Origin: Arenicellales bacterium
GTDB lineage: Bacteria; Pseudomonadota; Gammaproteobacteria; Arenicellales; UBA868
DNA length: 64,000 nucleotides
Assembly (NCBI GenBank): GCA_050256425.1
Contig: JBBWVW010000086.1
Location: forward strand, 1,015 to 65,014
Direction: 5' to 3'
Position 1 is the stretch's first letter, and each line of letters opens with the position of its first letter. The notes under the pieces were generated by a model. That model made no database searches and was not told the origin of the DNA. It saw only the letters and a list, made by a program, of their open reading frames with translations. This document shows positions 9,375 to 25,526 of the stretch, piece after piece. Position numbers and translations under genes: made by a program.

Positions 9375-10187
9375 CTACATTTCCCGTTGCCAGGTATAAC
9401 GTTGCACCATTTTCGCTACGATGGCGTCAAGCGTATACCCGATGATGCCAATGACTACGACCATCGCTGATAAGTGATCGTATGACAATGTTTCCCTGGC
9501 ATCTTTGATCGCGTACCCAAGGCCTGAGCTAACGCCAAGCAGTTCCGCCGGAACCAGAACCACCCATGCGACACCCAGTGCCAGTCGTATTCCCGTAAAT
9601 ATATCGAAAGCAATTGCAGGAAAAATCACCTCTAATAACGTCTGTCTAAAATTTGCCCCAAGGTTTCTGGATACCTTAAACCATGCCGGATCCACTTTCT
9701 TTAATCCAGCAGCAGTCGCGTAAACAACAGGCCAAATGGCTGCGATTGCAATGAGAAAAATAATAGCTTGATCCCACCTGGGAAAAACAAACACCAGGAT
9801 AGGCATCCAGGATAGTGGGCTCACCATTCGTAGCAATTGAAATGGCTCATTACTGATCTGCTCAGTAACTTTGCTCAGACCGATCGCTATTCCTATTGGC
9901 ACACCAATTAAGACGGCTAAGAACAATCCAATCGCCAAACGGTAACCACTCGCCAGAACATTCTCGGTAATGTATCCGGATGAGAGTAGACCCGGCACCG
10001 CCTTCATTGTTGGAACTAAACCAAACTTGATAAAACTACTCGTCTCCGGGGTAATTGCCAGAAACCAGCTACCGATCGCCCAAAGGACGAGGAGGATTCC
10101 GACTCCTGTGGCCGGGTAAAGAACTCGGTCCCTCAACCAAACCAGACTTGTGTTCCGATCGATACCTTTAATATTTTCGCTAGCCAT
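9375..10187 (-). CDS. ABC transporter permease (NrtB/CynB/SsuC-like)
   Basis: LRMVSPLSWMP, EAA-like loop (SRNLGA) and LVPAELLGVSSGLGY. Confidence 0.9.
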   Translation of the reverse strand: MASENIKGIDRNTSLVWLRDRVLYPATGVGILLVLWAIGSWFLAITPETSSFIKFGLVPTMKAVPGLLSSGYITENVLASGYRLAIGLFLAVLIGVPIGIAIGLSKVTEQISNEPFQLLRMVSPLSWMPILVFVFPRWDQAIIFLIAIAAIWPVVYATAAGLKKVDPAWFKVSRNLGANFRQTLLEVIFPAIAFDIFTGIRLALGVAWVVLVPAELLGVSSGLGYAIKDARETLSYDHLSAMVVVIGIIGYTLDAIVAKMVQRYTWQREM

Positions 10188-10204
10188 GTCTTCAATACGT
10201 TAAG

Positions 10205-11023
10205 TTAACCACGATGCCAACTAAAACGCTTAATCAGTGCCATGCATACGCCGTCCATCAAGAATCCTAATATTCCGATTACCAGGATCATTACTGCCAG
10301 ATTGTCATACATCAAGTTTTCACGTGAGTCCTGGATCGTGTAGCCAAGACCTGAGGTTATACCAAGAAATTCTGCAGGCACAATGACAATCCACGCTACT
10401 CCGACGGCCAGCCGAATACCGGTTAAAACGTCAAATGCGATTGCTGGCAGAATGATCTCCTTCACGACATCCCACCAACGGGCACCGAGGTTTCGGGCAA
10501 CCTTGAACCACGAAGGGTCCAGCTTGGCAAGCCCAGCCGCAGTCGCGAAAGCGACGGGCCAAACCGCTGCCATCGAGATCAAGAAAATAATTGCCTGATC
10601 CCAGGTCGGCATAGCAATTACGGCTATCGGCTCCCAAGACAAGGGGCTTACCATTCTAAGAAATTGGAAGGGTGTATTACTTAACTTACGAAAAACTTTA
10701 CTTCTACCCATCAGAATCCCAATCGGCACTCCTGTGAGTATGGCAAGAAGCAAGCCCATTCCAAGGCGATAACCGCTCGCGAGACTTGCGTTTACTATGG
10801 TTCCGTCTTCGACTAAGTATGAGACCGCATTAAGAGCTGGGCCAGGCCCAAAATCGGCAAAACTGCTCGTTGAAGGGCTGCTCTCAAGTAACCAGCCACC
10901 ATACCACCAGAGACCAAACAAAATTGACAGCCCCATGAGGCTGTAAAACACTCGTGTTACCAGGGTTCTGAAGATTGCTCCCAGACGAGAGAAAGGTTGA
11001 TCGTTATTGGTCACTGTCGACAT
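10205..11023 (-). CDS. ABC transporter permease (NrtB/CynB/SsuC-like), second paralogue
   Basis: LRMVSPLSWEP, ARNLGA and IVPAEFLGITSGLGY. Confidence 0.9.
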   Translation of the reverse strand: MSTVTNNDQPFSRLGAIFRTLVTRVFYSLMGLSILFGLWWYGGWLLESSPSTSSFADFGPGPALNAVSYLVEDGTIVNASLASGYRLGMGLLLAILTGVPIGILMGRSKVFRKLSNTPFQFLRMVSPLSWEPIAVIAMPTWDQAIIFLISMAAVWPVAFATAAGLAKLDPSWFKVARNLGARWWDVVKEIILPAIAFDVLTGIRLAVGVAWIVIVPAEFLGITSGLGYTIQDSRENLMYDNLAVMILVIGILGFLMDGVCMALIKRFSWHRG

Positions 11024-11118
11024 AGCTAATGAAGAGTCTATTTTGTGGATTCTCAGCCAGTCTTCTTGATACGAATCGACGGGCCAAAGTACTCTATTCG
11101 ACTTTGATCGATCGCCGA

Positions 11119-11907
11119 CTATGGTGCTTCATCAGTGCCCCGTTCTTCGATACTTGAAGCCGCCCGGAATGTCTCCATTAAATGTTCGCGAAGTTTTTGA
11201 ACTTCGGAATCCTTAGCGTTACGCTCTTCTGGTAATGAAACGACGATCTCGTCCCTGATTTTCCCTGGTGAACCGGCCATGATCACGGCGCGGTCGGCCA
11301 TCAACACCGCTTCATCAATATTGTGAGTGACTATAACTAGATTTATTCCCAGGCTTTTTGCAATAGAGCGAACATCTTTTTGCAAAGCGGCCCGCGTGAA
11401 CGCGTCCAGAGCTGAAAATGGTTCATCAAGAAGCAGCATTTCGGGCTCCATAACCAAGGACCTTGCGAGCGCCACTCTTTGTTGCTGGCCGCCCGATAAA
11501 TCCTGAACGTTTGAGTCCGCAAAGTCTTCAAGATCTACGAGTTTTATGGTTTTCTCCACACGTTCTTGAATTTTTGATTCTGGCCAGTGAGCGAACTTCA
11601 AGCCGATGCCCACGTTCTGGCGAACATGCATCCACGGAAACAAATGGGGCGCTTGGAACATCATCACCCACCGCGGAGATGGATCCTTCACCGGGACATC
11701 ATCGATTCGGATTTCACCAGCAGTGGGGGCCAACAACCCTGCCATAATATGAAGTAAGGTCGACTTGCCACAACCAGATCGCCCAATAATTGCCAGTACC
11801 TCTCCAGGCAACGATTCTAGATTGACCTGGTCAAAGGTTATCGGGCCACGCGATGCATAGCTATGACTTAGTTCTTTTACGGCGATATGCACGCCCTGCT
11901 TACTCAT
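11119..11907 (-). CDS. ABC transporter ATP-binding protein (NrtD/TauB-like)
   Basis: GRSGCGKST, LSGGQQQR, LLLDEPF and VTH. Start is ATG 11907 or 11952. Confidence 0.93.
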   Translation of the reverse strand: MSKQGVHIAVKELSHSYASRGPITFDQVNLESLPGEVLAIIGRSGCGKSTLLHIMAGLLAPTAGEIRIDDVPVKDPSPRWVMMFQAPHLFPWMHVRQNVGIGLKFAHWPESKIQERVEKTIKLVDLEDFADSNVQDLSGGQQQRVALARSLVMEPEMLLLDEPFSALDAFTRAALQKDVRSIAKSLGINLVIVTHNIDEAVLMADRAVIMAGSPGKIRDEIVVSLPEERNAKDSEVQKLREHLMETFRAASSIEERGTDEAP

Positions 11908-12111
11908 TTCGCCCCTCCTCCTTACGATCTTTATATTTCTTGCGGCTTCCATAATAGGCCAAGCCGAAACTAATCTAACAACATCGACTAAATGCCATTA
12001 CAACATAATGGTTACTTGAATTAACCTTGAGGTTAGTAATAAGGTAATGCCTTTATACTTTAAGTATCCCATAAGTTATCCAAACAGTTAAACTGCAAAC
12101 ATACTTTCTCT

Positions 12112-12149
12112 AAGACGATCTAGTTATCTCCTAAATAGGAAATTCCTAT
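12112..12149 (-). promoter_or_regulatory. LysR-type operator copy 1, facing the ABC ATPase/permease operon
   Basis: Minus strand ATAGG-aattt-CCTAT-ttagga-GATAA-ctag-ATCGTCTT; contains a T-N11-A dyad. Confidence 0.75.
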
Positions 12150-12252: not shown

Positions 12253-13209
12253 ATGCCACGCAACACAATATTTCCTCGCTCCCTAAGGTACCTTTTAGCA
12301 GTCGCCAAGCACTCCAGTTTTACGCGCGCCGCAGAATCCTTGTTCGTTTCTCAGCCCGCTCTTTCCCAACAGATAAAACAACTTGAAGCGCAGATCGGCA
12401 TTCAATTGCTGGAACGTTCCGGACGGAATGTACACCTAACAGATGCCGGAGAAATTTATGTACACCACGTCAAGCGAGCGCTCGCAGAAATAAATGCTGC
12501 TGCGCAGGCCTTAGATGACCTAAGCGACCTAACGCGAGGCTCGCTGAACCTGGGGTTAACGCCAATAACCGACTACCTAACGGCGCCTCTAATCCGAGAC
12601 TTTATCACCAAATACCCGAGAATCTCTTTAAACACTATCGAGATGACACAGCAACAGATTGAAGAAGCGGTGCTGCAGGATCAGGTAAATCTTGGAGTCA
12701 TCTTCAGTGATTCATTTTCTCTTTCTACAAGATCGGCGGATCTAGAGATCTACACACTCTTAACTGACTCCCTCGTGTTGGCGGCCGCGAGTTCCACCCA
12801 TCTAACCACTAATGCTAATGAATGCCTCTATTTGGAAGAAGTTGGCTTAGTGAAGCACCCATTAGCGTTATTGAACTCACAGTTTGAGATGCGAAAGCAA
12901 ATTGATGCGTACTTTTCTTACCATGAGATTACGCCGAACGTCACACTAGAATCCAACTCACTCGGTGTAATTATCGAAGTCGTTCGCTCCGGAGAATTAC
13001 ATACAATATTACCCGCATCAATCGTCAAGTCACTAGGCGGTCTTACTCCACTCACGGTGAGCCCGCCGCTGCCGCAACACACTGTCACTATCATTATCAG
13101 AAAGTCTGCCTATCAAAGTCAGGCTTGTAGCGCTTTCCTTAAGCTTGCGCTGCTTTGGAGTCAGGTCCCTAGAGGCGTGCTCGCAGCAGCAAACAAGGCC
13201 CATGGATAA
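12253..13209 (+). CDS. cynR: CynR-like LysR-family transcriptional regulator
   Basis: HSSFTRAAESLFVSQPALSQQIKQLE and DLSDLTRGSL resemble E. coli CynR; cyanase is nearby. Confidence 0.8.
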   Translation: MPRNTIFPRSLRYLLAVAKHSSFTRAAESLFVSQPALSQQIKQLEAQIGIQLLERSGRNVHLTDAGEIYVHHVKRALAEINAAAQALDDLSDLTRGSLNLGLTPITDYLTAPLIRDFITKYPRISLNTIEMTQQQIEEAVLQDQVNLGVIFSDSFSLSTRSADLEIYTLLTDSLVLAAASSTHLTTNANECLYLEEVGLVKHPLALLNSQFEMRKQIDAYFSYHEITPNVTLESNSLGVIIEVVRSGELHTILPASIVKSLGGLTPLTVSPPLPQHTVTIIIRKSAYQSQACSAFLKLALLWSQVPRGVLAAANKAHG

Positions 13210-16474: not shown

Positions 16475-16512
16475 ATAGGTTTTTCCTATTCTCTGGATAA
16501 AATAATCGTCTT
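16475..16512 (+). promoter_or_regulatory. LysR-type operator copy 2, facing DUF1348
   Basis: ATAGG-ttttt-CCTAT-tctctg-GATAA-aata-ATCGTCTT running into TTGAAT (-35-like). Confidence 0.78.
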
Positions 16513-17695: not shown

Positions 17696-18829
17696 TCAGA
17701 GAAGACCTCGCGCCGAGGACCAATACCATTGGTTATAGGACATCTTCAGCATGTGCATCGACTTGGTTGGCGGCCTGATTTCCGGTGGATCAATATAATT
17801 GAAGCATGCATTAGTTGCGCGGTCCTGGTCTGCTTCGATAAAGCAATACACCTTGCCGTCGTACTCTCGTGTTGCCGTCCCGGTTCGACAAAGAGATGCG
17901 ATGTTCTCACCGATTACTTCACTTTCAAAGTGGGCGGTTGAACCTGTTTTGCTGATTGGCAGGTTAGTGGTATCACCAAGCACGAAGACGTTATCCTGGC
18001 CGTCCATCCTTAGCGAATAACGGTCAGTCGGTATCCAGCCCCCCTCGCCAAGGTTATTATCTTCTATCACCTGCATACCTCTGTGAGGAGGGACGGCGAC
18101 TAACAGATCGAATTCTTTTTCTGTCCCCTCTTCGCTATGTACGATTTTGTTTTCGACATCGATCTCTTTCATATTGAAGAAAGTTTCGTAATCGACTTCC
18201 ATCCGCGCAAATTCCGGGATTGCCCATTTCGCGATGTTTTCAATGTTGTGTATCCGCGCAATCGGATAGGTGTACTTGAGATCGACCTTGTCGCGAATGC
18301 CGCGTTTTTTAAAAAATTCATGCAGCATGAAAGTGATCTCGATCGGCGCGATGGGACACTTATGCGGAACACCAACCACCACCACTACCTTGCCCCCTTC
18401 GAAGTCGCGCAGTTTTTTAAACATACTGACAGCGCCGTCTCGGGTATACGGTGTTTCAGACGACTCCTTAAGTCCAGGCACCTCGTCATATACCGCTTCA
18501 CAACCAGTCGCTATCACTAGCATGTCATAGTCATGGACAACCCCGGCTTTGGTACGAACGCGGTTACTGCTCATTTCAAATTCTTCAACAGGATCAACGA
18601 AAAACTTGATGCCCGGCTCCAAAAGACTCGATTGATCACGACAAATATCGTTAAGAGCCATTTTGCCAAACGCAACGTAAAGGAGCCCAGGCTGATACCA
18701 GTGTTGGTCCGAAGCGGACAACATTGTGATCTCCACGCTGCCTTGTCTGATTTCTTTGGAGAGTCGTCGCGCAACATTGTTTGCGGCGATCGTTCCGCCC
18801 ATTCCACCCCCGACGAACAGAATTCTCAT
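17696..18829 (-). CDS. sqr: Sulfide:quinone oxidoreductase-like flavoprotein (type III-like)
   Basis: GGGMGG FAD motif, HKCPIAPIE, VPPHRG, LPISKTGSTAHFE and VYCFIE (two active-site Cys). Confidence 0.8.
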   Translation of the reverse strand: MRILFVGGGMGGTIAANNVARRLSKEIRQGSVEITMLSASDQHWYQPGLLYVAFGKMALNDICRDQSSLLEPGIKFFVDPVEEFEMSSNRVRTKAGVVHDYDMLVIATGCEAVYDEVPGLKESSETPYTRDGAVSMFKKLRDFEGGKVVVVVGVPHKCPIAPIEITFMLHEFFKKRGIRDKVDLKYTYPIARIHNIENIAKWAIPEFARMEVDYETFFNMKEIDVENKIVHSEEGTEKEFDLLVAVPPHRGMQVIEDNNLGEGGWIPTDRYSLRMDGQDNVFVLGDTTNLPISKTGSTAHFESEVIGENIASLCRTGTATREYDGKVYCFIEADQDRATNACFNYIDPPEIRPPTKSMHMLKMSYNQWYWSSARGLL

Positions 18830-18914
18830 TTAGACCTCCTTATGAAATGCCAAACCCACTTTCGAAAAATACTTTTCACCACATACAAACTAACACCAGA
18901 CGGAAAGGGATATT

Positions 18915-19145
18915 TCACTTTATCTTGCGAACCTTTATGTGCCATACGTCATCGATCTTTTCGTTGCTAACAAGCTCGTGACCCACTTTACTGATCCACT
19001 CCGGTACATCGTTTGCAGAACCTTTATCGGTAGACAGCAGTTCTAACTGGTCTCCGACTCCAGCCCGCTTCATGAATGAGATCAGTTCCATCAACGGCCC
19101 TGGACAAAAAGTGTTCCGGGCATCGACTATTTTTTCTTCGGACAT
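18915..19145 (-). CDS. tusA: TusA-family sulfur carrier
   Basis: VDARNTFCPGPLM (CPxP) and DVPEWI motifs. Confidence 0.9.
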   Translation of the reverse strand: MSEEKIVDARNTFCPGPLMELISFMKRAGVGDQLELLSTDKGSANDVPEWISKVGHELVSNEKIDDVWHIKVRKIK

Positions 19146-19183
19146 AACGCTTCTCCACAAATGACACTTAGTGCCAGTTTCGT

Positions 19184-19576
19184 CTAAAACGAGACTATTC
19201 TTCCGTCTTCTGCATCAGAGAGGAACCGGGTCAATCCAGTAGCAGGTCCAAACTCTAACATCAGATCATCTGGACTAACCTTAAGGAGATCTAGAGCCAT
19301 TGAGCAGGCCAATAATTTAGCATCTCCGAGTTCGGCTGCCTGTTCAAATAATACCCTGAACTCTGGGACGCCCTTGACACCGATTAAATCCCCGAATGGT
19401 CCCTCCTTTGGCGGCACTAAGGTCGCATTCTGCTTAACGAGGAATTGAAGAGCGTTCATCGAAAAAAAGACCGACACTTCGCTTCCACTTGCTGCCGCGA
19501 CAGAAGCGACCATCGCTGCCATTTGCAGTTTTTCGAGTGTTCCAGAAACACAAATTATTGATAGTTTGCTAGTCAT
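19184..19576 (-). CDS. DsrE/DsrF/DrsH-like (DsrE2-type) sulfurtransferase
   Basis: SGTLEK, AAASGSEVSVFFS and KLLACSMALDLL (conserved Cys). Confidence 0.85.
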   Translation of the reverse strand: MTSKLSIICVSGTLEKLQMAAMVASVAAASGSEVSVFFSMNALQFLVKQNATLVPPKEGPFGDLIGVKGVPEFRVLFEQAAELGDAKLLACSMALDLLKVSPDDLMLEFGPATGLTRFLSDAEDGRIVSF

Positions 19577-19732
19577 GCTGATACTTGATTGGTAGTGAAC
19601 CGAACCTGTGTGAAGGAGCTCTAATTCTTGAAGAGCCTCACCTAACGGAGTTTTACGAAACTAGGCTTGTCATCTTCAGAGGCGCAACCCTATGAGTCTA
19701 CGAGACATCCTGACCCCAATGTGGCCAGTTTC

Positions 19733-19770
19733 AAGACGATAATTTTATCTGAAGAATAGGAAAAACCTAT
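19733..19770 (-). promoter_or_regulatory. LysR-type operator copy 3, facing dsrE-tusA-sqr
   Basis: Minus strand ATAGG-ttttt-CCTAT-tcttca-GATAA-aatt-ATCGTCTT running into TTGAAA. Confidence 0.78.
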
Positions 19771-19877
19771 ACTGGCCAAGCAAACTTATAACTAAAGCGT
19801 TAAAAACCTCAACAAGCAGTGTTCCTGAAAATCTACTATTCAGCCAGATCAGATGACCTTTGGGCTTGGTAGAGAAA

Positions 19878-20606
19878 TCAGCTCTCGCTTTGGATATGCC
19901 GCCTCACTGCCCAGCCCGAAAAACCCCCAAGCACCAGCCATAAGATCAGACTGCTAAGGCCAGTGGCTAGCAGAAAATCTTTTGACAACTCGGAGAGTTG
20001 ATCAGCGATGGCTATCGGAAACCCTTCGTAGAGATTCTCCGCGTGCGGTGCACCGTATATATGTGGCGCGCACAGAAGAACAACCAACCCGAGCCACTTC
20101 CATGGGCTACTCAGTATGTAGGCCAGGTACATACCTGCCCCACTACAGATTACAGTCGCTGTCCACCACCATTGCCTTAGTTCTAACGCAGCACCGGAAA
20201 CCCCCGGGATTTCAGGAGAAATACCAAAAGAAGGAGCGGCAAAAAAGGCAATGAAGCCTCCAAGGCCCCAAATGATCCCGGAAGAGGCGCTGATTTCAGT
20301 ATTTTTCCCAAACTTCAGTGAGGCCGTAGCTATTAAAGCGACCAGGACAAGTGCAAATCCAACAGCAGTTAATACGTTCGATAAAATCGTAAACAGAGTT
20401 CGCTCGATTCCATCACTGGGTTCCCAGTCCTCATCATGCTGGCCATCAGCGACTTGCGCTGTGTCTCCGGCGCCGACTTTCAGGCTTTCAAATTTCTCAG
20501 CCTGAACAATGATCGGAATCACTTGCCAGCGCTGGGCCAGACTGAGGGCAATGCCCCCAATCAGCCCAGCGATAAGCGCTATAACGATCAGCCGGCGAAA
20601 CAGCAT
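19878..20606 (-). CDS. cbtA: Cobalt transporter subunit CbtA
   Basis: VIPIIVQAEKFE, WEPSDGIERT, APSFGISPEIPG, RQWWW and PHIYGAP. Start trimmed to ATG 20606. Confidence 0.88.
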   Translation of the reverse strand: MLFRRLIVIALIAGLIGGIALSLAQRWQVIPIIVQAEKFESLKVGAGDTAQVADGQHDEDWEPSDGIERTLFTILSNVLTAVGFALVLVALIATASLKFGKNTEISASSGIIWGLGGFIAFFAAPSFGISPEIPGVSGAALELRQWWWTATVICSGAGMYLAYILSSPWKWLGLVVLLCAPHIYGAPHAENLYEGFPIAIADQLSELSKDFLLATGLSSLILWLVLGGFSGWAVRRHIQSES

Positions 20607-20619
20607 AACCGCCGCGGCC

Positions 20620-20814
20620 TTAGTGGCAGGGGAAGCCTTGAGAATGGCGCATATCGTGCCCCGCATTGTGGACTGATGATGTCTGAACAAAAGCGGCGGC
20701 AAACAACACTGTGGCACCAAGGGCAAACGCGCAAACAAGCTGCAAGCCCTTGCTGGCAAGCATTGGCGCTACCTGTGGAACTTCAACAACGTTTTGGTTG
20801 ACATGATTTTGCAT
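20620..20814 (-). CDS. cbtB: Cobalt transporter subunit CbtB
   Basis: Single TM helix followed by HNAGHDMRHSQGFPCH. Confidence 0.9.
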   Translation of the reverse strand: MQNHVNQNVVEVPQVAPMLASKGLQLVCAFALGATVLFAAAFVQTSSVHNAGHDMRHSQGFPCH

Positions 20815-20888
20815 AACTAAATCTCCTGGATTAAATTTTTTGACCACTAATCTTTAACCACTTTAGATGGTATTTTCGTATCGTCCGT

Positions 20889-22292
20889 TTAGATGATAAA
20901 CACCTCTTCGCGTTCGAACGGATTATCACCCTTTGGCACACTTGGATCGTTTCTCCATTCCGGATTAGCCATTAAAGAATTCCTTATATAGTCGTACTGC
21001 ACCAAGTCATTGACGACGAACTCTGGATCTAAAGTATCCAAGAACGTTCTATCGCCAGTGACTACCGTTTCGTTTTTCAACTCGTTTACTACCAAGCGTG
21101 TCGCAGAGGGGTAAGGCCATGCTTGGAAATCAATCCGATTTTGACCCCATTCTGTATGACGGATAGCTGCAGGATTATTGTAGTACGCCGGGTCGTAGAA
21201 CAACATAGCGCGCTCGACCACCTTGCTGGGGAAGGGATAGTACTTCTTGCCCTCACGCGACAACATCTGGGCCATTTCCTTGCGGTTAGATCCGGTGTAC
21301 AACTGGGCTTTAACAATCGCGTTATGCACTCCTTGAGCCCACGCAGCATGTTCTGGATCCATACAATCATCTTCATGCATGACTACGACACAGCATGGGT
21401 GTCCTTTCCAGACGTCGCCAGTGAATCGAAGCACTTTGCCGCCTGCCTTGATTTCACCTAAGGCATTAAAGGGTTCCGCAACGCAATACCCATCTATTTT
21501 TTTGGCCGCCAAAGCTGGTGGCATATCGGGCGGTGCTAAGACCTGGTAATTACATTCGTTTGCCGCCAAAGCTGCATCTTGTGGTCGAATGACCGATGTA
21601 ATACCTGCCGCTTTCATGATTTTTTGAGAGACGATATTATGAATTGAGTACCAATATGGTACAGCGAATTGCTTACCGCCAAAATCTGCCGGCGTCTTAA
21701 TATCTGCGTTTACAACGATCGCCGATCCGTTACTGTGATCCCAGGCGGTGACCTTCACCGGATACTGATTGTTATACCTCATCCAAATTGGTATCGGGAT
21801 AAGCATATGGGTCAGATTAAATCGGTGTGCAGAGAAAGCCTCTACCAGTGGAGACCAACCTCTAATGAGGGTTGGACGCTTGGAGTCAATACCTTCTTCT
21901 TTGAAGAAGCCCAGTTCATGTGCGACCAGAAGTGCTGCTGCGTCCGTGATCGGTATGTAGCAAATATTGATAACTGGATCGAATTTTTTCTTACCGAATG
22001 CGGGAAGCCCTGTAAGCCCAGTACCAGCAAGTGCTGCGCCGGCCTGAAGGACCGAGCGGCGGCTGATTCCCGTTCCCATAAATCCGCCAAACAGTGGATC
22101 AGAATTTGTCTTTAGGTATGGATCATCAATTCCATCACCAAATTTCTTGGCATCGAGGGGCAGACCCTTTTCATCAATGGGACCACCATCGACAAACTGC
22201 GCTTCCTCTGGGTCTAATAACTCTTTCTTAATAGCCGTAGACTGCGCTTTTGCTGCTAGAAACTTCACCTCTTCCTGTGTTAGCTTAGACAT
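20889..22292 (-). CDS. ABC transporter substrate-binding protein (NrtA/CmpA/CynA-like)
   Basis: YIPITDAAALLVAHELGFF, AVPYWYSIHN, GYCVAEPFNA and HPCCVVV; internal TAT motif SRRSVLQ. Confidence 0.9.
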   Translation of the reverse strand: MSKLTQEEVKFLAAKAQSTAIKKELLDPEEAQFVDGGPIDEKGLPLDAKKFGDGIDDPYLKTNSDPLFGGFMGTGISRRSVLQAGAALAGTGLTGLPAFGKKKFDPVINICYIPITDAAALLVAHELGFFKEEGIDSKRPTLIRGWSPLVEAFSAHRFNLTHMLIPIPIWMRYNNQYPVKVTAWDHSNGSAIVVNADIKTPADFGGKQFAVPYWYSIHNIVSQKIMKAAGITSVIRPQDAALAANECNYQVLAPPDMPPALAAKKIDGYCVAEPFNALGEIKAGGKVLRFTGDVWKGHPCCVVVMHEDDCMDPEHAAWAQGVHNAIVKAQLYTGSNRKEMAQMLSREGKKYYPFPSKVVERAMLFYDPAYYNNPAAIRHTEWGQNRIDFQAWPYPSATRLVVNELKNETVVTGDRTFLDTLDPEFVVNDLVQYDYIRNSLMANPEWRNDPSVPKGDNPFEREEVFII

Positions 22293-22479
22293 ACCTTTCC
22301 TCCAGCGTTAGCCGTTTTCTATTTAAAGTTAAAGTCTAATTCCTTCCAGAACGTATACTCGTCTTCTTATTACATCTGTCTCTCGTATATAACCTCACTA
22401 ACTTCCAATTGATTGTGTGCGTCCAATAGTAACTTGCGTTTTGGTACTATCGAGCCCAGCTGGCCTGCTTGCATTTCGC

Positions 22480-22815
22480 TCAAACTGCGTTCAGTCGCGT
22501 TTCAATAACCTTCATTTGTTGCGCAAGATCTTCTTCCGTAATAACTCCCCGTAGAATCATGCTGTGAGCAAGTGCAAGAAGTTGACGCTCTGGATGTGGA
22601 ATGTGCTTATAGTGATCCTCTACCAGATCATCCTCTTCACCCCGTCGTTCTAGAACAGGCAGGGCACACGCCCCCTCGTTGAGAACTTCACAGGTACTTT
22701 CGAGTGTTATCCTCCAGGGAGGATCTGGATTATCAACGCCATACTCCTCGCATAGGTCGGCCCACACCCGTCCTTCCTTTCCAATCTGTTCCAGCAATGG
22801 AATTGGTTTAGACAT
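22480..22815 (-). CDS. Thiocyanate hydrolase activator/accessory protein (P15K-like)
   Basis: Directly after scnC. NHase-beta-like C-terminus HPERQLLALAHSMILRGVITEEDLAQQM. Confidence 0.7.
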   Translation of the reverse strand: MSKPIPLLEQIGKEGRVWADLCEEYGVDNPDPPWRITLESTCEVLNEGACALPVLERRGEEDDLVEDHYKHIPHPERQLLALAHSMILRGVITEEDLAQQMKVIETRLNAV

Positions 22816-22824
22816 TTTTCAGAC

Positions 22825-23535
22825 CTAATGACCGTAAGGATGTACTGCGCGGTGAATCGGCCGCGTGTCGTCCGCCTTTCGATCTGCGCGTGGCATTGCG
22901 ACACCGATCAAGCAATCCCGTGTCACGATCTCCGCTAGTTGATCTTCGCTCCACCCTTCAGTGCCTTCAGGGCGGGTTGGCATCACCACGTATCTGGTCT
23001 TCTGGTTGGAATCAGCGACCCTTATTTCGACATCCTCGGGCAACTGCAGGCCGAACTCTGCTAGGACTTGGCGCGGCCACCTGACCAGTCGGCGACGATA
23101 ATTAGGGGTTCTGTACCACTCAGGGGACTGACCCAGTATAGGTCTTGGGTAGCAAGAACAAAGCGTGCACACCACTACATGCTTAAGCGTTGGTGTATCC
23201 ACCAGAATCCGGGGGTTGCAATAGTCGCTCGGTGTCCCAAACTTGGTTGGCATCGTGTTAATCCAGTCAATGCCTACATCAAGACTCGCCTTTACAGGAT
23301 CGTCTATACATAGTTGCTTGTAATCTTCATCTAGCCACGCCTTTGCGACCAATCGACCCGCGGGAAGCGGCCCAAGGGTATGCATATACTCTGTCCACTG
23401 GTTATGGTCATCTTGAGTGAATAGCCCTTTTTCAATACAGAGTTCACGGACCGCTACCTCAAGTACTTCAAAGTCGCTGACCTCATCCACCATAGGCGCA
23501 GGTGGACGGTGATCGTGATCATGTGAGTTTGACAT
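22825..23535 (-). CDS. scnC: Thiocyanate hydrolase gamma subunit (cobalt-binding)
   Basis: VVCTLCSCYPRPILGQSPEWYR. Thr marks Co-type, and Arg after YP is SCNase-like (NHases have Trp). Closely resembles Thiobacillus thioparus ScnC as I recall it. Confidence 0.95.
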   Translation of the reverse strand: MSNSHDHDHRPPAPMVDEVSDFEVLEVAVRELCIEKGLFTQDDHNQWTEYMHTLGPLPAGRLVAKAWLDEDYKQLCIDDPVKASLDVGIDWINTMPTKFGTPSDYCNPRILVDTPTLKHVVVCTLCSCYPRPILGQSPEWYRTPNYRRRLVRWPRQVLAEFGLQLPEDVEIRVADSNQKTRYVVMPTRPEGTEGWSEDQLAEIVTRDCLIGVAMPRADRKADDTRPIHRAVHPYGH

Positions 23536-23612
23536 TATGTTTTCCTCTTTACGTCAGACGAGTTCTTTTTCGTTTTTTACTTTGTGATCGATAGTAAAAT
23601 TATCTAGGCCGA

Positions 23613-23966
23613 TCAAATAGCCTCTAACCATCTTTCAGATAGTTCGGTCTCGAGCGTATCCCCTGCAAATTTGGGGGGATAATCTGGCCATAGGTCAGTT
23701 TGATTGAACACTACACTGTAGAACCACTCTGGAGTGTCTGTGTTATCCCAAGCCTCGTCCTCGGCAGCAGGACTTTCGTAAACCAACTTGACGACTATTG
23801 CCTCTGCTTCGCGAAGGTACATCTGCGAACGGGAATAGAAGATATCTGGCAAGTTGCGGATGCGCACTTTATCGCCCACGTTAAACTTCGGCTTTCCTGC
23901 CTCTCCCTTGAAGCACTGAGGATCCCCAATGCCAGTTGCTTTCTCAGCGTGATGATTATTACTCAT
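23613..23966 (-). CDS. scnA: Thiocyanate hydrolase alpha subunit
   Basis: ATGIGDPQCFKG, KFNVGDKVRI, LVYESPAAEDEA and DTLETE. Confidence 0.93.
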   Translation of the reverse strand: MSNNHHAEKATGIGDPQCFKGEAGKPKFNVGDKVRIRNLPDIFYSRSQMYLREAEAIVVKLVYESPAAEDEAWDNTDTPEWFYSVVFNQTDLWPDYPPKFAGDTLETELSERWLEAI

Positions 23967-24393
23967 AAATCTCCCCTCGCTTCTTAACCTCGTCGATCTT
24001 ATTAACCAATTCGGTCAGGGTAATATGCTGCTTGTCGACCAGCACTAGCGCCGCTGTCATCAACCACCTGCCGTAATACGGTAGCCCGAGGTATTGGGTC
24101 TGCCCGACGTCCACGTTTTGCCGCCGCCTACGCTCTTCAGCGTTCCAAACGCCACGCCATGCTAATACCTCACAGGTGACAAAAGTATTGTGTTCCCAAA
24201 TCTCCTCTTCTTTTTCTTCCCACGTTATAGGAATGTCGGCCTCACCTCCAACATCATGGGAGGAGCGTGTGTAAGCGCGGTAATGCGCGTTATCAATTAG
24301 GTCGGGATAAGGGGCGTGCTGCGGCTGATGAAGCGCAGGCTGAAGCTGCGCAACAATATTTAGATGCCGCATGATATTTTCGCGAGTTGACAT
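23959..24393 (-). CDS. scnB: Thiocyanate hydrolase beta subunit
   Basis: QPALHQ, HDVGGEAD, EKEEEIWE, LAWRGVWNAEERRRRQN and YLGLPYYGRW. Start trimmed to ATG 24393; overlaps scnA by 8 nt. Confidence 0.93.
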   Translation of the reverse strand: MSTRENIMRHLNIVAQLQPALHQPQHAPYPDLIDNAHYRAYTRSSHDVGGEADIPITWEEKEEEIWEHNTFVTCEVLAWRGVWNAEERRRRQNVDVGQTQYLGLPYYGRWLMTAALVLVDKQHITLTELVNKIDEVKKRGEIYE

Positions 24394-24458
24394 ATCTGTT
24401 TTGCGTCTCCGAATTGGAATTCTCAGCTTAAAACTACTCCTTGATCGTCCTTTGTGCC

Positions 24459-24496
24459 AAGACATTCTGGTTATTGACTGTATAAGAAAAGTCTAT
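24459..24496 (-). promoter_or_regulatory. LysR-type operator copy 4 (diverged), facing scnB
   Basis: Minus strand ATAGA-ctttt-CTTAT-acagtc-AATAA-ccag-AATGTCTT with identical spacing, running into TTGGCA; TAGTTT lies 18 nt further on. Confidence 0.65.
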
Positions 24497-24852
24497 TTAA
24501 TTTCTCAGGCAATCTCCAAACCTCTAGGATCAATCCAGACATCTAAGATTGTATAGCTTATTAACCATATCTCAATCATGGTAAATAAGCTTTAGTCGCC
24601 TGTATTTTTGAATAGCTGGCCCAATAGCGGGCTCACGCAAGTGTTTTGAAGCAACACGGGCATCAAGCCCTTCACCTAACACGATGCCCACGAGCAAACC
24701 CGAAGCAACAGCCACCCAAAAAACCGAACAGCCAAAAGCTGTATTTCAGCCTTCAACGCACCGTAACGATATGATTAGATTAATGAGCCTGGGCTTTAAT
24801 GGCGTTTCCAACACCTTGTCGCAAACTTGAACCTATTTCTTGCTACGGATTT

Positions 24853-25035
24853 TTAGGAAACTGAAGACATCTTATTCTTCCTTTTCTCAAGTTCCTTTAG
24901 CAGCGTAGTTTTCGCATAAGGCTTAAGAGCCTTCCATTTCTGACATTCCGCTTTAGTCCGCCCGCAGCCACGACACCAGCCTTTCGGTCCACCAAAATCG
25001 CAAACATCAATACACGGGCTTTTGTTGTGTTTCAC
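24853..25035 (-). CDS. DUF1289-domain small Cys-rich protein
   Basis: SPCIDVC...GWCRGCGRT..E...W pattern. Confidence 0.85.
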   Translation of the reverse strand: MKHNKSPCIDVCDFGGPKGWCRGCGRTKAECQKWKALKPYAKTTLLKELEKRKNKMSSVS

Positions 25036-25082
25036 AAATTCTTCGATCGCCGTCTATATCCCAATGATTACCAGTAATCAAA

Positions 25083-25526
25083 TCATTGTTGCAGGGTGCG
25101 TAAAATCCGATCAATCCCTGGCTCTAACTGGCGGAGCCGATTGAACTCTTCGTATAAACGATGTTCCAGATTCTTGAAATTTAAAGGAAGTACTCTTTGA
25201 CAAATACTATACCCATCGCCCATCACGTCATAACCTTTCCAACTTCGAATTTGTTCCCCTTCAGAATCTAGAAAGTCTCTAATAAAGGTCTGCTGCGACG
25301 GGCAATCCTCCTCCGCATGCATACAAATAGGGAAGACTTTTTGTCGAAGCTGTGGAGCTTCGATGTACGTTTCGAAATGCACCCCGCCCTGGCTCTCGTT
25401 GTACCAGGTGTCCTTATATAGTTGAAGGTACACGCCACGGTTGTATATCTCCCAACCATCCGCAAACCAGCTCGATTGCTCTAGTTTGCTCTGAAGATTA
25501 CGAAAAATAATTTTTAGATCTTTCAT
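25083..25526 (-). CDS. Hypothetical protein
   Basis: 147-aa ORF co-oriented between the PhzF-like and DUF1289 genes; no family recognised. Confidence 0.7.
   Translation of the reverse strand: MKDLKIIFRNLQSKLEQSSWFADGWEIYNRGVYLQLYKDTWYNESQGGVHFETYIEAPQLRQKVFPICMHAEEDCPSQQTFIRDFLDSEGEQIRSWKGYDVMGDGYSICQRVLPLNFKNLEHRLYEEFNRLRQLEPGIDRILRTLQQ

Follow-up and report, generated by a model that had tools for sequence, protein, structure and literature searches.

A predicted CbtBA cobalt importer encoded at the end of a thiocyanate hydrolase gene cluster in a host without detectable cobalamin synthesis genes

The 64-kb stretch of DNA analysed here (the window) belongs to a 2.67-Mb draft assembly (199 contigs, 91% complete) of an Arenicellales bacterium and carries cbtB and cbtA, a gene pair for a predicted cobalt transporter that is normally under vitamin B12 control, directly behind a thiocyanate hydrolase gene cluster. 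We propose, at a probability of roughly 0.72, that cbtBA specifies a two-part cobalt importer co-produced with thiocyanate hydrolase (SCNase, EC 3.5.5.8) and that feedback by cobalamin (B12) is not involved; the imported cobalt would most likely be fed to SCNase. Comparison of sequences and loci, rather than experiment, gives this interpretation good support. CbtAB was defined by comparative genomics as a predicted cobalt transporter of B12-producing bacteria, and essentially all organisms with such predicted transporters were described as having a B12 pathway (summarised in PMC2667541). The window's pair shares with CbtAB as defined the same two genes, the order cbtB then cbtA and the C-terminal HxxxHDxRHxxxFPCH motif of CbtB, but differs in having no cobalamin riboswitch, no cob neighbours and no detected corrin pathway in the genome.

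Gene content and boundaries of the scn-cbt unit

On the minus strand, the window reads in 5′ to 3′ order scnB-scnA-scnC, a P15K-like gene, a binding-protein gene, cbtB and cbtA. The SCNase beta and alpha subunits are encoded by scnB (23959..24465; PF21006 NHase_beta_N, 3.3e-17), whose orthologues across the 80 loci compared below show 65-88% identity, and by scnA (23613..23966; PF02211 NHase_beta_C, 5.2e-19). The gamma subunit gene scnC (22825..23535) specifies a protein that scores 370.4 bits on the SCNase-gamma equivalog TIGR03887 (cut-off 291) and matches chain C of PDB 2DD4, the Thiobacillus thioparus SCNase gamma subunit, at E=2.6e-124, with the cobalt-binding VCTLCSC cluster, a non-corrin cobalt site, intact and aligned. 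The order scnB-scnA-scnC, a gamma subunit that clears the equivalog cut-off and a CTLCSC site of the Co type identify the enzyme encoded upstream of cbtBA, by sequence, as a true thiocyanate hydrolase. The P15K-like gene that follows (22480..22815, 111 amino acids) has no match in Pfam or NCBIfam; it is 47-78% identical to the gene directly after scnC in related loci and 53% identical to its counterpart in T. thioparus DSM 505 (locus L068), and from position and identity its product is presumed to be an SCNase activator or cobalt-insertion chaperone. After a gap of 187 nt comes the gene of an NMT1/NrtA-type periplasmic substrate-binding protein with a Tat-like signal (20889..22292, stop codon at 20889-20891; PF13379, 1.2e-32), whose position after the P15K-like gene is conserved in scn loci.

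The last two genes of the series are cbtB (20620..20814; PF09489, 4.3e-17) and cbtA (19878..20609; PF09490, 2.3e-46). CbtB is a single-pass membrane protein that passes the Pfam cut-off (62.5 bits against 27) and ends in HNAGHDMRHSQGFPCH, a His/Cys motif that aligns with all 70+ CbtB sequences compared, riboswitch-linked forms included. Its ATG at 20814 is preceded by the ribosome-binding site AGGAGA, and both are kept in relatives. CbtA, the multi-pass membrane subunit of the predicted importer, exceeds the cut-offs of both Pfam PF09490 (159 bits against 30.7) and NCBIfam TIGR02458 (202.6 bits against 182.9). Its gene begins 10 nt after the cbtB stop on the same strand, the adjacency by which CbtAB is defined.

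The preliminary description of this DNA had placed the start of cbtB 74 nt behind the stop of the binding-protein gene, with no B12 riboswitch in between. The spacer (20815..20888, minus strand) is indeed exactly 74 nt long and, according to Rfam, promoter/terminator and fold scans, contains nothing but the ribosome-binding site. The Rfam scan gave zero matches at gathering score in the whole window, including the cobalamin families for which a negative result had been expected; even at E≤10, no cobalamin, AdoCbl-variant or NiCo riboswitch was seen in 18800-25200, where three chance-level matches of other kinds appeared. Consensus scanning found no promoter- or terminator-like site in the spacer, and the 101-nt stretch 20800-20900 that spans it showed no significant RNA fold (z = +0.5).

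The boundaries of the unit are suggested by a 38-bp operator, ATAGNNNTTTCYTAT-N7-ATAA-N4-ATNGTCTT, which has exactly four matches in the window versus zero expected. A diverged copy upstream of scnB (24459..24496, minus strand; pattern and alignment) is the presumed control site of the scn-cbt unit, and a promoter-like site is present on the upstream side of scnB at 24575-24548. The unit's end is marked by the pattern-matched copy at 19733..19770 (minus strand), 107 nt past the cbtA stop, which heads dsrE-tusA-sqr-DUF1641; the gap between cbtA and dsrE measures 301 nt. Two other copies precede the genes of an ATP-binding cassette (ABC) ATPase and permeases (12112-12149) and a DUF1348 gene (16475-16512). 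No copy was found between scnB and the end of cbtA, including before cbtB and before the binding-protein gene, so that by anatomy cbtBA are the last cistrons of the scnB-headed unit.

The rest of the genome gives no sign that the cobalt is used in B12 synthesis. The assembly holds one cbtA and one cbtB, both those of the window; NiCoT (NicO family) and CbiM were not found in it. The earlier remark that the window has no cob genes extends to the assembly, in which CbiC, CobD/CbiB, CobN and CobS were not found. Because CbiC and CobD were not found either in the five genomes whose ScnC is most like the window's, draft incompleteness is unlikely to explain their absence. With corrin-synthesis genes undetected, the purpose of the imported cobalt cannot be B12 synthesis. 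Cobalamin riboswitches occur in the genome only as a pair on another contig (C130). The two are divergent and back to back (L005:2068-2283, minus; L005:4203-4398, plus), and flank a TonB-dependent receptor, btuCD-like genes and a 484-amino-acid TonB-like protein with a coiled-coil region, which together are a B12 import set.

Read as a mechanism, cbtB and cbtA would encode a two-part inner-membrane cobalt importer and close a unit of seven genes whose first five are scnB-scnA-scnC, the P15K-like gene and the binding-protein gene. The local LysR-type regulator (12253-13209) would turn the unit on, the presumed signal being thiocyanate or a thiocyanate product. The apo-enzyme, its cobalt-insertion chaperone, the substrate-binding protein and the importer would then be made together from a transcript shared with scnBAC; the ion entering the cell would be Co(II), whose insertion into the gamma subunit and subsequent oxidation would yield the non-corrin Co(III) centre, making SCNase dependent on CbtAB. 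B12 feedback would play no part because in this lineage cobalamin is taken up preformed and genes for corrin synthesis were not detected.

Cobalt-uptake genes at SCNase loci and the B12 status of their hosts

A ScnC scan with one genome per species returned 492 relatives, and the best 80 loci were kept for all locus counts; cobalt-uptake genes were tallied in the ~20-kb neighbourhood of each. The loci share a backbone of scnBAC, the P15K-like gene, an optional ATPase gene, the binding-protein gene, optional permease genes, a variable slot and dsrE-tusA-sqr-DUF1641. A cbtAB pair is present in 30 of the 80 loci (four of these also carry a NiCoT gene and one a CbiM-like gene), and a lone cbtB in three. 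Another 23 have a CbiM-like gene only, of the Thiobacillus and Thiodiazotropha type; that of T. thioparus DSM 505 (PF01891, 6e-18) is solitary and lies upstream of scn. NiCoT alone (PF03824, 2e-89) occurs in four loci, in the same slot as cbtBA, while 20 loci have no cobalt-uptake gene, at least six of them being too short to judge. Predicted cobalt-uptake genes from three unrelated families are thus found in 60 of the 80 loci, as one would expect were cobalt supply one of the island's functional modules.

The 30 cbtAB pairs take one of two positions: 21 are in the slot and nine are 4-7 kb upstream of scnB. One in-slot locus (L081, genome G050) comes from an unpublished genome; without it the in-slot count is 20, and it was excluded from the tree described below. 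In 20 in-slot loci, the gap before cbtB ranges from 32 to 163 nt, with a median of about 74. Most of the other loci have the full ABC set (ATPase, binding protein and one or two permeases) and cbtBA in one operon. The window differs in this respect: its ABC ATPase and two permease genes (9375-11952), under their own operator copy, lie 9 kb from the binding-protein gene, unlike in most other scn loci, where all of these genes are inside the scn operon.

Fifty-eight CbtA sequences were compared in a quick maximum-likelihood tree, which is unrooted, came from a short search and hence establishes no direction of change. It placed all in-slot scn CbtA in one clade together with three riboswitch-linked forms (support 96 by the Shimodaira-Hasegawa-like approximate likelihood ratio test, SH-aLRT). 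The window's CbtA groups with those of four related loci, L007-L010 (support 99); this group is sister to two riboswitch-linked sequences (SH-aLRT 91) and stands apart from the main scn CbtA clade of 19 members (support 98). The upstream-type scn CbtA form a separate clade (support 95). Since riboswitch-linked and scn-linked CbtA are interleaved, with at least two scn clades, the scn linkage arose or reversed more than once, a pattern that fits co-option of CbtAB.

Among 50 SCNase genomes searched, 33 have cbtA, nearly always as a single copy, and 27 SCNase genomes have their cbtAB at the scn locus. Only one of the 33 (G038; riboswitch at C51:72520, cbtA at C51:73044) showed a riboswitch immediately before cbtBA; that copy is outside the scn locus and acts as a positive control of the method. 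CbiC is missing from 25 of the 27 published genomes with scn-linked cbtAB, which contradicts the generalisation in PMC2667541 that organisms with such transporters have the B12 pathway. Across the SCNase-bearing genomes, CbiC is missing in 43 of 49 (G001-G049) and cobalamin riboswitches are present in 44 of 50; carriers of thiocyanate hydrolase are overwhelmingly B12 importers, not producers.

The same division appeared in an unbiased sample of 400 genomes spread evenly over the window's class, cross-checked by riboswitch, NHase_alpha and CbiC searches, in which 25 genomes besides the window's own have cbtA. In 13 of these, a riboswitch lies at most 4.6 kb upstream of cbtA on the same strand, and all 13 have CbiC; in eight of them CbiC follows cbtA at a distance of no more than about 4 kb, apparently as part of one operon. 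Five have an SCNase-type gamma gene 4-5 kb from cbtA and no riboswitch nearby, and none of the five has CbiC. The remaining seven show neither link, with CbiC in four of the six tested (unpublished G089 was left out of the CbiC test). The two links occur together in no genome of the 25. We lean, by a small measure, towards the view that CbtAB falls into two classes, one riboswitch-controlled in corrin producers and the other dedicated to SCNase, almost only in corrin-less sulfur oxidisers, and recruited at least twice.

One SCNase genome (G007) combines several of these elements around locus L013, beside which features lie at 413113-413703 and 433105-433311 of contig C7. A cobalamin riboswitch stands ~1 kb beyond the upstream end of the locus, CbiC is inside the locus downstream of the scn genes, and the scn slot retains only cbtB.

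Collectively, the claim in the preliminary description that CbtAB has been co-opted for SCNase gains support from the linkage in 30 of 80 loci, the non-homologous transporters of other loci and the interleaved CbtA tree. Its estimate of novelty was too high, as cobalt-uptake genes in scn clusters had already been reported (PMC5328954).

Known systems, counter-evidence and alternative functions

A close precedent is the work of Berben et al. 2017 (PMC5328954, Fig. 3), who described scn clusters of T. thioparus DSM 505 and Thioalkalivibrio thiocyanodenitrificans ARhD1 and stated that the two have "different cobalt uptake systems"; the missing riboswitch and the B12 status of the hosts are not discussed there. 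These clusters resemble the window's in scnBAC, a hypothetical (P15K-like) gene, NitT/TauT-type ABC parts, dsrE-tusA-sqr and a hypothetical gene, and the window likewise has a predicted cobalt transporter inside an scn cluster on the common backbone. A Thioalkalivibrio metagenome-assembled genome (locus L055) has cbtB-cbtA in the same slot as the window. The window differs in that its ABC ATPase and permease genes have moved 9 kb away, so that cbtBA directly follows the binding-protein gene, and T. thioparus has its solitary upstream CbiM-like gene in place of cbtBA.

On the best reading, the window's arrangement is analogous to that in Rhodococcus rhodochrous J1 (Komeda 1997, cited in PMC7689651), whose L-nitrile-hydratase cluster includes nhlF, a NiCoT cobalt permease gene and the classic precedent. 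In both cases a cobalt importer gene lies beside a non-corrin cobalt enzyme of the nitrile-hydratase family, and the NiCoT genes of some SCNase loci occupy exactly the slot of cbtBA. The protein families are unrelated, and no NicO-family gene was found in the window's own genome. Literature searches by gene name found no paper linking cbtA or cbtB to SCNase or nitrile hydratase.

Several observations weigh against the proposal that cbtBA is a cobalt importer made with and for SCNase. CbtB scores 60.2 bits on NCBIfam TIGR02459, slightly below the cut-off of 64.4. A linked cobalt importer is not obligatory, because about a quarter of the SCNase loci show no cobalt transporter nearby. The searched literature holds no expression or transport data for any CbtAB, so that we infer its transport specificity, and the family is absent from a 2021 review on cobalt. 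Consensus scanning could have missed a weak promoter in the 3′-terminal part of the binding-protein gene or in the 187 nt that precede this gene. As the genome is a 91%-complete draft, the absence of cob genes is strong evidence, short of proof. Finally, the spacer between the binding-protein gene and cbtB contains a GC-rich hairpin without a U-tract in close relatives (L007:12705-12780, L008:12586-12698, L009:5202-5286 and L010:12592-12668), which could lower read-through; the window's own spacer is without it. In these relatives, the hairpin might stabilise the mRNA or act as an attenuator, and so set how much binding protein is made relative to CbtBA.

Part of this evidence would suit a housekeeping function, in which cbtBA is a general importer of cobalt or another divalent metal, has its own constitutive or metal-responsive promoter and came to lie near scn by way of a mobile island. 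As the sole recognisable cobalt importer of the assembly, cbtBA would have to meet any other cobalt needs of the cell, and the hairpin of the relatives might separate the transcripts. Such a function is nevertheless unlikely, given that the scn linkage recurs in two CbtA clades and in two positions relative to scn, that unrelated transporters occupy the same slot, that the spacer has no promoter-like site, and that the 27 genomes with cbtAB at the scn locus lack CbiC in all but two cases.

The classical model, in which cbtBA supplies cobalamin synthesis or remodelling and the riboswitch was lost or lies outside the region examined, has on its side the way the CbtAB family was defined and the sister relation between the window's CbtA clade and two riboswitch-linked sequences. 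We regard it as highly improbable in view of the corrin genes not found in the window's genome (CbiC, CobD/CbiB, CobN, CobS) and in the five relatives (CbiC, CobD), of the riboswitches placed at B12-uptake genes on another contig, and of the empty Rfam scan of the window. Equally far-fetched is the suggestion that CbtAB is not a cobalt importer but a membrane component working with the orphan binding protein on thiocyanate or another anion, the permeases being 9 kb off: the window's binding-protein gene is directly followed by cbtBA and not by permease genes, yet most other loci have the full ABC set and cbtBA in one operon, CbtB retains the His/Cys metal motif common to riboswitch-linked forms, and NiCoT replaces cbtBA in the same slot.

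Variant loci and significance

The composition of the slot varies between scn loci. Many have a second full-length cbtB 3′ of cbtA, giving cbtB-cbtA-cbtB′ (L012:14286-15522, L024:7145-8393, L062:7345-8573, L066:8767-10044 and others); the window has one cbtB. Elsewhere, the slot holds a lone cbtB (L006:12693-12893, L013:14290-14484, L023:7136-7330, L029:14782-14976, L032:14793-14987, L039:14756-14950), with cbtA at another site or a second cbtBA pair upstream of scnB. The partner cbtA is 12 kb downstream on the contig of L006 and on another contig in the genomes of L013 and L023. These lone genes suggest that the role of CbtB may be separable from that of CbtA. A duplicated scn promoter was sought in the upstream-type locus L029, and no inverted repeat was found there, so such a duplication is not a general feature.

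In three loci, the main scnBAC is preceded at 4-5 kb by a second scnB/scnA-like pair that shares ~50% identity with the pair in the window (L059:4276-5032, L067:5329-6091 and L069:5314-6076). No second gamma gene was detected beside these pairs, which may be paralogous accessory pairs. In the window, the rest of the island comprises, besides the LysR-type regulator, ABC ATPase and permease genes already mentioned, a cyanase and a CLC channel.

The arrangement is real and widespread, and its kind was noted in 2017; the principle of a metal importer wired to its own enzyme is likewise not new. The present analysis adds numbers for the split of the CbtAB family, information on whether the hosts make B12, and the displacement of transporters among three families. 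The window and about 30 like loci present a CbtAB pair that would serve a non-corrin cobalt enzyme in hosts without detectable B12 synthesis genes, and they correct the published generalisation that ties CbtAB organisms to the B12 pathway. The comparison suggests that thiocyanate-degradation islands come with their own cobalt-supply module, in which CbtAB, NiCoT and CbiM are interchangeable, a point of relevance for bioremediation strains and for cobalt-poor marine settings. For CbtAB, known as a predicted transporter from B12 contexts, such hosts offer an uncluttered genetic background in which its function could first be tested.

If CbtAB does fall into two classes, thiocyanate hydrolase would be the only detectable reason for inorganic cobalt import in these often marine lineages, and thiocyanate turnover would be tied directly to dissolved cobalt. 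The SCNase-linked hosts would then also provide a B12-free background in which CbtAB and the hand-off of cobalt to the P15K chaperone could be tested.

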